From contig CAWKKR010000006.1 in assembly GCA_963850305.1 (NCBI GenBank), positions 64,001 to 128,000 on the forward strand: a stretch of 64,000 nt of DNA, written 5' to 3'. A model generated the notes under the pieces. The model saw nothing but the letters and a program-made list of their open reading frames with translations, did not search any database and was not told where the DNA came from. The position numbers and the translations under genes were made by a program. This document shows, piece by piece, positions 39,050-56,070 of this stretch. The DNA comes from an uncultured delta proteobacterium. GTDB taxonomy: Bacteria > Myxococcota_A > Polyangia > Polyangiales > Polyangiaceae. Position 1 is the stretch's first letter, and every line of letters begins with the position of its first letter.

Positions 39050-39586
39050 CTACTAACAAAGGGGGGCCTTGCCCCCCGCGGCTTGCTTCGCAACCGCTCC
39101 CCCCGCCGCCTTCGGCGTGCTCGCTGCGCTCGTTTCGTAATGGGGGCCTTGCCCCCGCGGCTCGCTTCGCGACCGCTCCCCCGCCGCCTTCGGCGTGCTC
39201 GCTGCGCTCGTTTCGTAATGGGGGCCTTGCCCCCGCGGCTCGCTTCGCGACCGCTCCCCCGCCGCCTTCGGCGTGCTCGCTGCGCTCGTTTCGTAATGGG
39301 GGCCTTGCCCCCGCGGCTCGCTTCGCGACCGCTCCCCCGCCGCCTTCGGCGTGCTCGCTGCGCTCGTTTCGTAATGGGGGCCTTGCCCCCGCGGCTCGCT
39401 TCGCGACCGCTCCCCCGCCGCCTTCGGCGTGCTCGCTGCGCTCGTTTCGTAATGGGGGCCTTGCCCCCGCGGCTCGCTTCGCGACCGCTCCCCCGCCGCC
39501 TTCGGCGTGCTCGCTGCGCTCGCGTAGTTCCGCACCTCTTTGATCCCTCGGGGACGACGCTGCTCGTCGATGCGGAACTATTAACA
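39050..39586. repeat. 138-bp structured element with 6 tandem copies of a 78-bp internal unit
   Basis: Units start at about 39061, 39142, 39220, 39298, 39376 and 39454; bounded by CTACTAACA/CTATTAACA 528 bp apart (138+5x78). Confidence 0.92.
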
Positions 39587-39627: not shown

Positions 39628-40692
39628 TCAGCGGCAGAGCGCGTGCTTCTTCAGGAGTCGGTAGAGATGACCACGCGCGATCCCCGCCTGACGGGCGGCG
39701 AGCGTCATGTTCCCCTGGGAGCGTTCGAGCACTTGCCGGAGGTATTCTGCCTCCCATTCGCCGAGGAGCGCGTCCTTTGCTTCCTTGAACGTCTTCCATT
39801 CGGCCTTCAGCCGATGCGTGCCGGACCTCGCCGACGGGTTTTCGACGCGGAGGATGTCCAGGCCCAGACAATCAGTGGCCGGATCGACGCACATCGCTCT
39901 CTGAATGACGCTGGCAAGCTCGCGCAGATTGCCGGGCCATTCGTACCGCGTGAGAACCTCGAGCGCGTCACCTGCGATCATCGGCGCGGGTCGGCCCTGC
40001 GCGCGTGCGAAATCCGCGATGACGTCGCGGACCAGCAGCGCGATGTCATCGGCGCGCTCACGCAGCGGCGGCATCTCGATGCGCGTCGCGAACAGTCGCT
40101 CCGACGCTTCCAGCCTCGACGTGCCGGACGCCGTCGTCGGCTGAAGCTCCAGCGATGTGGACGCAATGATGCGGACATCGCCGGATACGCTGCTAGGAAA
40201 GGGGGGCCTTGGCCCCCCGCGGCTCGCTTCGCGACCGCTCCCCCCGCCGCCTTCGGCGTGCTCGCTCCGCTCGCGTAGTTCCCCACCGCTTTCATCCCTC
40301 GGGGACGACGCGCGCGTCGATGCGGACCTGCTGACGAGCTCGAGGCGCCGCCCGACGATTCTCGACAGCAGGGGCTCGCTCTTCGTGAGCAACTCGCCGA
40401 TCTCGTCGAGAAAGAGCGTGCCGCCCGTCGCCTGGCGCTTCTTCTCCAGGACCTCGAGCTCGCGCGCCGCCGGCTCTATACTGCCGAGCTCGCACACGAC
40501 GAACGGGCCACCGGCGCGCGCCGACGCTCGATGGATCGCCGCAGCGAGCTCCGCCTTGCCGGTTCCGGGCTCGCCGGAGATGAGCACCGCCGTATCGAGT
40601 TCTGCGGCCTTGTCGCGTTGCGCGCGCAGTTGCTCCGCGCGCCAGCTCGTTCCACGGAAAATGAGGGTGTCGTTGTCGCTGTTTGCTTCCAT
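39628..40692 (-). CDS. NtrC/sigma54-type AAA+ activator-like protein with Fis HTH, lacking GAFTGA, carrying an in-frame 46-aa insertion
   Basis: GEPGTGKA, GGTLFLDEIGEL, MPPLRERADDI, WPGNLREL, GNMTLAARQAGIARGHLYRLLKKH. Confidence 0.8.
   Translation of the reverse strand: MEANSDNDTLIFRGTSWRAEQLRAQRDKAAELDTAVLISGEPGTGKAELAAAIHRASARAGGPFVVCELGSIEPAARELEVLEKKRQATGGTLFLDEIGELLTKSEPLLSRIVGRRLELVSRSASTRASSPRDESGGELRERSEHAEGGGGSGREASRGGPRPPFPSSVSGDVRIIASTSLELQPTTASGTSRLEASERLFATRIEMPPLRERADDIALLVRDVIADFARAQGRPAPMIAGDALEVLTRYEWPGNLRELASVIQRAMCVDPATDCLGLDILRVENPSARSGTHRLKAEWKTFKEAKDALLGEWEAEYLRQVLERSQGNMTLAARQAGIARGHLYRLLKKHALCR
40190..40332. mobile_element. Monomeric copy of the 138-bp palindromic element (MITE/REP-like), intragenic and in frame
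   Basis: Closely similar to the 39050 element; flanked by CTGCT direct repeats at 40190-40194 and 40328-40332. Confidence 0.75.
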
Positions 40693-44211: not shown

Positions 44212-44388
44212 CGCCGCGCCGCTCAGGGGGGAACTCCGATCGGCAGCAAAGCGACGGGCGGATCGGCGTGGAGTGAATCACGGCGTGACTTGAAACGCCG
44301 CGCCGCTCAGGGGGAACTCCGATCGGAGACAGAGCGACGGCAAGATCGGCGTGGAGTGAATCACGGCGTGACTTGAAACGCCGCGCCG
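44212..44388. repeat. About 83-bp direct repeat (2 units plus a partial) that duplicates the 3' end of the adjacent gene
   Basis: Units 44212-44295 and 44296-44378 are identical except for one G-run and a 17-nt central segment. Confidence 0.85.
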
Positions 44389-55639: not shown

Positions 55640-56052
55640 TGTTCAAGCTCGCGGCAACGACCTGCATCGCTGCCGTCGCTCTCACGACCGCCTGCACGGC
55701 GTTCGTGGACTTCAGCAACCTGGAAGCGAGGGGCTCGGACGCTGGAACCGGGGGGGCTGGAGCGGGCGGCGTGATCGGATCCGGCGGGACGATCGGTTCG
55801 GGAGGATCGAGCGGATCCGGTGGCGTGATCGGATCCGGCTGGAGGATCGGTTCGGGAGGTGCATTCGGATCGGGGGGTGCTCTCGGGACCGGTGGAGCGG
55901 CCGGAGCGGGAGGTGCACTCGGCGCGGGGGGAGCCGCTCCGACGTGCGTCGCATCCGCGTGTCCCGGGTGCATCCCCGTGGGTCCGTTCGGGTGCTGCAA
56001 GGACGCCGGCACGTGCGGCTGCACCTGGGCTCCGGGCGCGATCTGCTACTAG
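55639..56052 (+). CDS. Gly-rich lipoprotein with 8-Cys module (cassette 4)
   Basis: Lipobox TTAC, GG(V/T)IGS repeats, CCKDAGTCGCTWAPGAIC nearly identical to cassette 3; TGATG coupling to the PEGA gene. Confidence 0.72.
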   Translation: MFKLAATTCIAAVALTTACTAFVDFSNLEARGSDAGTGGAGAGGVIGSGGTIGSGGSSGSGGVIGSGWRIGSGGAFGSGGALGTGGAAGAGGALGAGGAAPTCVASACPGCIPVGPFGCCKDAGTCGCTWAPGAICY

Positions 56053-56070
56053 GAAAGGGGGGCCTGCCCC
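56046..56070. repeat. Truncated left end of the 138-bp element
   Basis: CTACTAGGAAAGGGGGGCCTGCCCC versus CTGCTAGGAAAGGGGGGCCTTGGCCCC (40190) and CTACTAACAAAGGGGGGCCTTGCCCC (39050). Confidence 0.6.

Follow-up and report, generated by a model that had tools for sequence, protein, structure and literature searches.

How does a hairpin-rich repeat come to lie in frame inside a regulator gene, and what moves it? The question is raised by a 138-bp segment in a 64,000-nucleotide stretch of DNA from an uncultured delta proteobacterium (the whole stretch is called the window here), where it interrupts the gene of an NtrC-like AAA+ regulator (Table 1). An initial annotation, made from the window alone, had read the segment as a mobile element flanked by CTGCT direct repeats and adding a 46-residue peptide to its host. 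These local observations could all be reproduced: CTGCT starts at positions 40190 and 40328, 138 bp apart, the minus-strand translation of 40192-40329 is the peptide given in that annotation, and in-silico removal of the segment gives ..RRLELVSSVSGDVRIIAST.. in the host protein, with the same spacing as in the best homologue. Moreover, the segment is absent from all 14 homologues aligned (the best 14 of 120 listed, 40-53% identical), which provides, at the protein level, counterparts of the empty sites that the annotation had suggested looking for in orthologs. In our reading, to which we assign a probability of roughly 0.85 on the basis of sequence comparison, the segment is a gene-less element with the ends of an IS110 element resident in this genome, and would have been put in at an AG core by the trans-acting, RNA-guided recombinase of that IS110.

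Table 1. Features of the regulator gene, the inserted segment and the other family copies in the window
Feature	Position	Strand	Remarks
Host gene, NtrC-like AAA+ / Fis-HTH regulator	39628..40692	-	354 aa; Sigma54_activat, AAA_lid_14 and HTH_8 matches
Inserted monomer plus one copy of the 2-nt core	40192..40329	-	138 bp, 46 open codons, host residues 122-167
Target left arm plus AG core, host-derived	40328..40334	-	TCAGCAG (minus strand); differs at one base from TCAGTAG, the target guide of the IS110
Left end	40290..40327	-	Shares homology with the opening ~45 nt of the IS110 left end; has a CATC motif, then a small hairpin, CCCCGA and ATGAA
Three GC-rich hairpins	40201..40261	.	At 40201-40218, 40219-40238 and 40246-40261; the part tandemly amplified in other family copies
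Right end plus AG core	40190..40197	-	CCTAGCAG (minus strand); differs at one base from the right end of the IS110 and likewise from the donor guide CCTAGTAG
Second family copy	39050..39582	-	Contains six hairpin units that repeat about every 78 bp; located between the regulator gene and an MFS gene
Right-end remnant	56046..56070	-	Breaks off after about 25 bp; contains the TAG that stops the called upstream ORF

In the AAA+ core, the insert separates a helix from the strand that comes next. In an AlphaFold2 model of the regulator, based on a 15-row alignment, pLDDT is near 90 in the AAA+ core on both sides of the insert and below 50 over residues 132-170; the 46 added residues are predicted to form a disordered loop with the AAA+ fold kept. 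Alternatively, the host gene could be dead or dying, its frame kept by chance and its protein not made or inactive. We lean against this possibility but take it seriously, as about 16% of random combinations of family locus and frame (34/210) would read through, the regulator has no GAFTGA loop and deviates at the sensor I and arginine-finger positions, and no close orthologue was found at E 1e-30 among 40 family genomes. Against it stand an intact reading frame, 86% of conserved columns kept compared with 77-99% in the homologues, a normal GC3 of 0.79-0.84 and the high confidence of the modelled core on either side; four homologues also lack the GAFTGA loop, and the regulator belongs to a subgroup without it. 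These intact features do not prove function, because a recent insertion would not yet show decay. The doubt concerns the host and not the mobiliser. Since a genus-wide DNA search with the regulator locus gave matches only to the MFS gene and the repeat, an empty site of the regulator gene is not available at the DNA level. Sequencing runs gave no reads of this organism, and no RNA data set containing it was listed (best share 0.09); four runs yielded short pieces with no contig spanning the insertion site, which counts neither for nor against the insertion.

The repeat family

Using BLASTN with four genomic variants, we found 121 loci in the 6.26-Mb genome, of which 36 have both ends, 26 the target-side end only, 17 the other end only and 22 neither, with the remaining 20 belonging to a sibling family. 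The genome-wide search proposed by the annotation thus turned up further copies, so the 138-bp segment is no chance sequence, and the element family amounts to about 80 loci. A loose search for ends gave 98 right ends, 32 of which were dropped as low-scoring, and locus 70 was left out on account of a mis-set end. Full-length copies are also present in the congeners G002, G004 and G006; some match was seen in 22 of the 61 genomes searched, and outside the genus these matches were mostly short and weak. No Rfam family reached its gathering score for the element, and a search of 72,556 plasmids with the element sequence gave no match. In the window, the annotated flanks of the copy at 39 kb (CTACTAACA at 39050 and CTATTAACA at 39578, 528 bp apart) and the third end at 56046 were confirmed. 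The six-unit array of the 39-kb copy is open in the frame of the MFS gene that follows it (597-aa ORF). Two 79-nt direct repeats at 44227-44388, 91% alike and 83 bp apart, are unrelated to the family.

The small element carries no ORF of its own. Hairpins are indeed its core, but the term palindromic element describes it only in part: the monomer is a cluster of three short hairpins and not one palindrome, and folding of the whole monomer gives z = -1.6 and -1.9. One hairpin stem pair covaries across loci (C-G 66, T-A 37, T-G 5, C-A 1). In one hairpin loop (within 40201-40261, minus strand) only the middle base varies, the loop reading G-N-A on the transposase strand with counts of 71, 18, 11 and 11 for the four bases. 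Loops of the G-N-A type resemble very stable single-stranded DNA mini-hairpins. The hairpin unit is amplified up to about ten times, most commonly with a period of 70 bp (71 of 152 internal periods). The annotation had pointed out that both the monomer and the amplified unit are multiples of three, which does not extend to the family as a rule, as this is true of only 4/15 monomers, 33/152 periods and 17/35 complete loci, the last being a mild enrichment (p 0.044).

Family copies occur solo, in tandem and joined to an insertion sequence through one shared core, and monomers arranged head to tail have one pentamer in common. Many right ends retain only CTAG or ACTAG. Identity to the nearest neighbour is 85-96%, except for two copies inside the insertion sequence. 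The copy in the regulator gene is about 90% identical to its nearest relative and has one mismatch to each guide (see below); given this divergence of ~10% and the guide mismatches, it may no longer be mobile. The 20 loci of the sibling family (e.g. C11:64630-64712, C7:689363-689423 and C7:943928-944001) have the same hairpin core with other ends. In some of them one end has the form seen at the right end in other IS110 relatives, and a matching transposase is absent from the genome; the sibling family is possibly the orphaned partner of another IS110.

A resident IS110 element and its guides

Seven family loci ran on into identical downstream DNA, which is a 1496-bp IS110 element present in eight copies that are 99.6-100% identical and lie outside the window. 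It codes, on the opposite strand, for a 410-aa DEDD transposase with matches to PF01548 and PF02371 and a score of 283 bits for NF033542 (cut-off 140); one copy has a frameshift in the last codons. These eight copies are the sole PF01548 matches in the genome. Seven of them abut a family copy via one shared pentamer, and two hold a monomer in their left end, at DNA spelling the target guide. These two monomers (C5:149210-149344 and C8:718266-718400) are identical to each other.

Read in transposase orientation, the IS and the small element both start, immediately after AG, with five bases that are followed by CATC, a small hairpin, CCCCGA and either ATGAA or ATCAA; TTCCTAGTAG is the terminus of both. 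The small element carries the IS right end together with a copy of the opening ~45 nt of the left end, and copies in congeners are identical to the IS110 left end at up to 38 of the 45 starting nucleotides. Furthermore, a metagenomic IS (L075) whose transposase is 95% identical carries the same small element directly after its right end. IS110 had been one of three candidates named in the annotation, and a search for a transposase bounded by the same ends leads to it; a non-autonomous, multi-copy element that is inserted in frame, has a sequence-specific target and would depend on a transposase acting in trans is supported. The analogy to HUH transposases and REPs did not hold, as the genome, which is 94.8% complete, has no match to the Y1/HUH transposase family PF01797.

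The IS110 left end holds two guides, one of which reads the left arm of the target and the other the element's own right end. Among IS110 relatives for which a guide and its DNA partner could be parsed (loci lacking a parsed flank or guide being excluded), 38 loci show agreement of the target guide with the five bases to the left of the core at 175 of 190 positions (shuffle mean 109), and 50 loci show agreement of the donor guide with the right end of the IS at 229 of 250 positions (shuffle mean 157); none of 10000 shuffles reached either value. The same was true when only unique pairs were counted (80/95 for the target guide and 109/125 for the donor guide; no shuffle of 10000). The relatives are not independent of each other, but their guides vary together with the DNA, and do so in a wide variety of ways. 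In the consensus fold of 29 left ends neither guide is paired, and 16 of 34 pairs show compensatory changes. A candidate right guide segment was rejected after it proved to be a stem in this fold, and no target consensus was seen in the right flank. Two target bases outside the motif used for detection also follow the guide (G in 28/53, A in 31/53).

AG is all that target and end have in common throughout the IS110 relatives, and the CTRCT-like duplicated target of the initial annotation is not borne out. The guides in this genome are TCAGTAG and CCTAGTAG, which have AGTAG in common by coincidence. Because both contain AGTAG, the CTGCT direct repeat consists of the target and the element's own end and is not a duplication. 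A classical MITE, with terminal inverted repeats, a 5-bp target duplication and a DDE transposase of the IS4/IS5 type, would also leave 5-bp direct repeats that are identical on both sides even where they depart from the consensus, and the genome holds 12 matches to the DDE family PF01609 (on C1 at three places, C4, C5 at two, C8 and C9 at four). We give this explanation almost no credence, since the element ends are not inverted repeats of each other and match IS110, by which it is largely refuted in a comparison that covered the IS110 ends; moreover, the pentamer is a fixed sequence explained by the two guides, and of the 11 complete loci whose target pentamer deviates, 8 do not have this deviation at the other end. 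The PF01609 matches are clustered on C9 and C1. Three complete loci, including the copy in the regulator gene, have the same deviation from the consensus in both pentamers; these count against the IS110 reading, as a 2-nt core does not explain them. They could result from branch migration across the five bases in common, or from conversion at a later time.

Further points count against the IS110 reading, among them the missing right-target consensus, the many shortened right ends and the want of a DNA-level empty site. The enrichment of complete loci for lengths divisible by three is not predicted for intergenic copies, and the IS110 burst is younger than most small copies. An earlier IS110 relative with the same guides may have spread the small copies, and such relatives appear from sequence searches to be widespread. 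In the congeners G004 and G006 no close transposase was found at E 1e-60, though full elements are present in these fragmented assemblies, where IS110 hits were 34% identical or there was no match; in G002, likewise a fragmented assembly, there was no PF01548 match despite full elements. In the IS110 relatives L087, L052, L112 and L120, different small hairpin modules flank the transposase up- or downstream, the module of L087 being about 85 bp long with the same right-end motif at its end. Hitchhiker elements may be common in this IS110 clade.

The age difference also bears on the idea that the repeats are a resident REP-like family, spread by other means such as a lost HUH/RAYT transposase, and that IS110 merely targets them. 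IS110 elements are known to target REPs (PMC12288879), and besides being older than the IS copies, the repeats are abutted by seven of the eight and are enriched between convergent genes (32/73 intergenic loci compared with 854/4853 gene pairs). We nevertheless consider this idea improbable: IS-derived sequence is found at both repeat ends, monomers lie within the IS guide DNA, solo copies are found where the DNA matches the target guide of the IS, and a Y1 transposase match is missing from the genome. In the IS110 reading, by analogy with ISPpu9/MITEPpu9 and IS621, the small element would leave its site as a minicircle, formed when its two AG cores recombine, and would re-insert at guide-matching sites, which include the junctions of other copies, the IS end and the DNA encoding the guide.

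Insertion sites and in-frame copies

For the analysis of insertion sites we built a dicodon gene caller, which yielded 5419 genes (85% coding) and recovered the ORFs of the window. At 14 of 51 target-side ends the core forms the last two bases of a called TAG stop codon. Among free sites, the corresponding figure is 113 of 2857 for CTACT (p 1.5e-8) and 6 of 57 for CTACTGA (p 0.028). The count of ends excludes those that abut an IS and the two copies lying within the IS. Many copies lie directly behind genes because the target often ends in a TAG stop codon. In addition, 8 of 49 opposite ends supply the stop codon of a gene on the other strand. Copies inside called genes are rare, with 4 of 77 loci compared with 2152 of 2857 free CTACT sites (75%). 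In-silico excision flagged eight further loci as genic, but these lacked a coding signal on one side and were left out of the count, as was locus 64, a member of the sibling family near a C terminus. In congeners, 1 of 48 usable loci was genic, in a sample of 60 regions chosen from the hits listed and thus not a census, from which 14 of 62 loci had been dropped as too near a contig or stretch end.

In all four in-gene loci the host frame runs along the transposase strand and is the same relative to the core, giving ..EGGGG.. in the protein. Besides the regulator, the cleanest in-frame case in the genome is C8:723188-723484, in which three 81-bp units add 99 codons to a 773-aa protein with several hydrophobic stretches; the insert is absent from 5/5 congener orthologues, to which the host is 55-61% identical, as close as the more distant of them are to each other. 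At C8:1743610-1743983, four 78-bp units form a 123-codon insert behind a likely signal peptide, which is absent from six homologues of about 41% identity in a loose alignment. A 69-bp remnant of 23 codons at C8:1884673-1884741, in a likely membrane protein, corresponds to a gap in two homologues of 35% identity, which lends it weak support. The congener case (L204:1580-1713, on contig C54 of G006) lies three codons behind the start codon of a likely membrane protein, a start that has a ribosome-binding motif; it is absent from 2/2 orthologues, and its right end is 3 nt shorter than the consensus, which keeps the frame. A search with the 46-aa peptide gave two hits among longer proteins without Pfam domains, which look like open frames across the repeat and were not counted as insertions.

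Both in-gene arrays have periods that are multiples of three (81 and 78), compared with 2 of 34 other arrays (p about 0.01). Under neutral survival we estimate 0.15-0.48 in-frame copies per intergenic copy, whereas 4 per 73 (0.055) were observed, so that in-frame copies fall 3- to 9-fold short of the neutral expectation. This points to selection that filters rare genic insertions, rather than to an element built for genes; the excess of complete loci with lengths divisible by three points slightly the other way. An element adapted to coding insertion in the manner of Rickettsia palindromic elements (RPEs), its length and stop-free strand selected to colonise genes, seems unlikely to us. It would fit with frames t1 and t2 of the transposase strand being open in 24 and 20 of the 35 complete loci, of which almost half have a suitable length, with five in-frame cases on the same strand in two species, and with in-gene arrays that expanded without losing the frame. 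However, stop-poor frames are expected in very GC-rich DNA, few monomers and periods are multiples of three, in-frame copies fall several-fold below neutral survival, and the genic share (4/77 and 1/48) compares with nearly half of the copies for RPEs (PMC10969869). Accordingly, the idea of a family built to create peptide insertions is not supported by these counts. Under the IS110 reading, genic insertions would mostly be purged, and the survivors would be copies at tolerant positions whose length is a multiple of three and whose transposase strand offers an open frame; the in-frame inserts are likely rare tolerated accidents.

Relation to known systems

REP/BIME repeats with their RAYT (Y1 HUH) transposases are GC-rich hairpins that form tandem arrays and are enriched between convergent genes. 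The present family resembles them in all of these respects, but its ends are derived from IS110 and its genome is without a Y1 transposase match. RPEs are structured repeats of about 150 bp that lie in frame in unrelated genes and add a recurring peptide (PMC10969869). The likeness extends to in-frame insertion with a recurring peptide, at four loci here and one in G006. The families differ in the genic share given above and in that a specific likely mobiliser and its guide could be identified here.

In the IS621 bridge system, a DEDD recombinase acts with a structured left-end RNA whose target and donor guides covary with the DNA (PMC11208160), and a dinucleotide core and scarless excision have been described for the IS621/IS110 family (PMC11208160; PMC13626964). 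As in IS621, the left target and left donor guides covary with the DNA and are unpaired here; in contrast, the core is AG here and CT in IS621, and the present IS110 has a non-autonomous partner whereas our literature search gave none for IS621.

MITEPpu9 (ssr9) is a gene-less module made of copies of the left box (41-43 nt) and a short right box of ISPpu9, an IS110-family element of Pseudomonas putida KT2440 (PMC12288879; PMC8450116). Circles containing only ssr9 form and need the transposase (PMC12288879). Like the present family, MITEPpu9 has an AG core and is found solo, in tandem and directly after the transposase with one AG shared (PMC12288879; PMC8450116), and the left end in the regulator gene is equivalent in position to its A' box. 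With a resident IS110, homologous ends and the same dinucleotide core, the present family is by its sequence of the MITEPpu9 kind. The comparison, which is one of architecture, suggests a kind that has been described once, of which the high-copy variant is new. The two differ in copy number (about 80 loci and several species of the genus here, 8 reported for MITEPpu9) and in their targets, a TCAGTAG-like site that is often a TAG stop here and REPs for ISPpu9 (PMC12288879). Only in the present family is the hairpin unit amplified up to about ten times and are copies found inside the IS guide DNA, and its in-frame genic copies contrast with three solo ssr9 copies described as intergenic (PMC12288879). 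The annotation's suggestion of an undescribed family therefore stands for the sequence, as far as searched, and not for the kind, which had already been described as MITEPpu9 (PMC12288879). Our literature search, which most subscription papers lay outside, found no IS110 partner of this kind besides MITEPpu9, no IS110-linked in-frame insert and no myxobacterial case.

It is conceivable, but in our view a long shot, that IS110 hitchhikers are a programmable and reversible source of protein-loop insertions, with the bridge RNA choosing the codon and the element supplying a ready-made disordered peptide, which would grow by 26-27 residues per unit, and with scarless excision toggling the host protein between two forms. 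If true, some RPE-like coding repeats would thereby gain the mobiliser that they have so far lacked. Coding repeats that lie in frame have been on record since the Rickettsia elements, for which the accessible part of PMC10969869 names no enzyme. Since the in-frame insert is tied by its sequence to one recombinase, guide and core, the event can be rebuilt in the laboratory. Moreover, the about 80 natural variants show what a bridge recombinase may require of the ends of foreign cargo, and a guide ending in TAG steers such cargo behind stop codons. Overall, the family would represent a second and much larger case of the MITEPpu9 kind, in which the peptide insertions look like a tolerated by-product.
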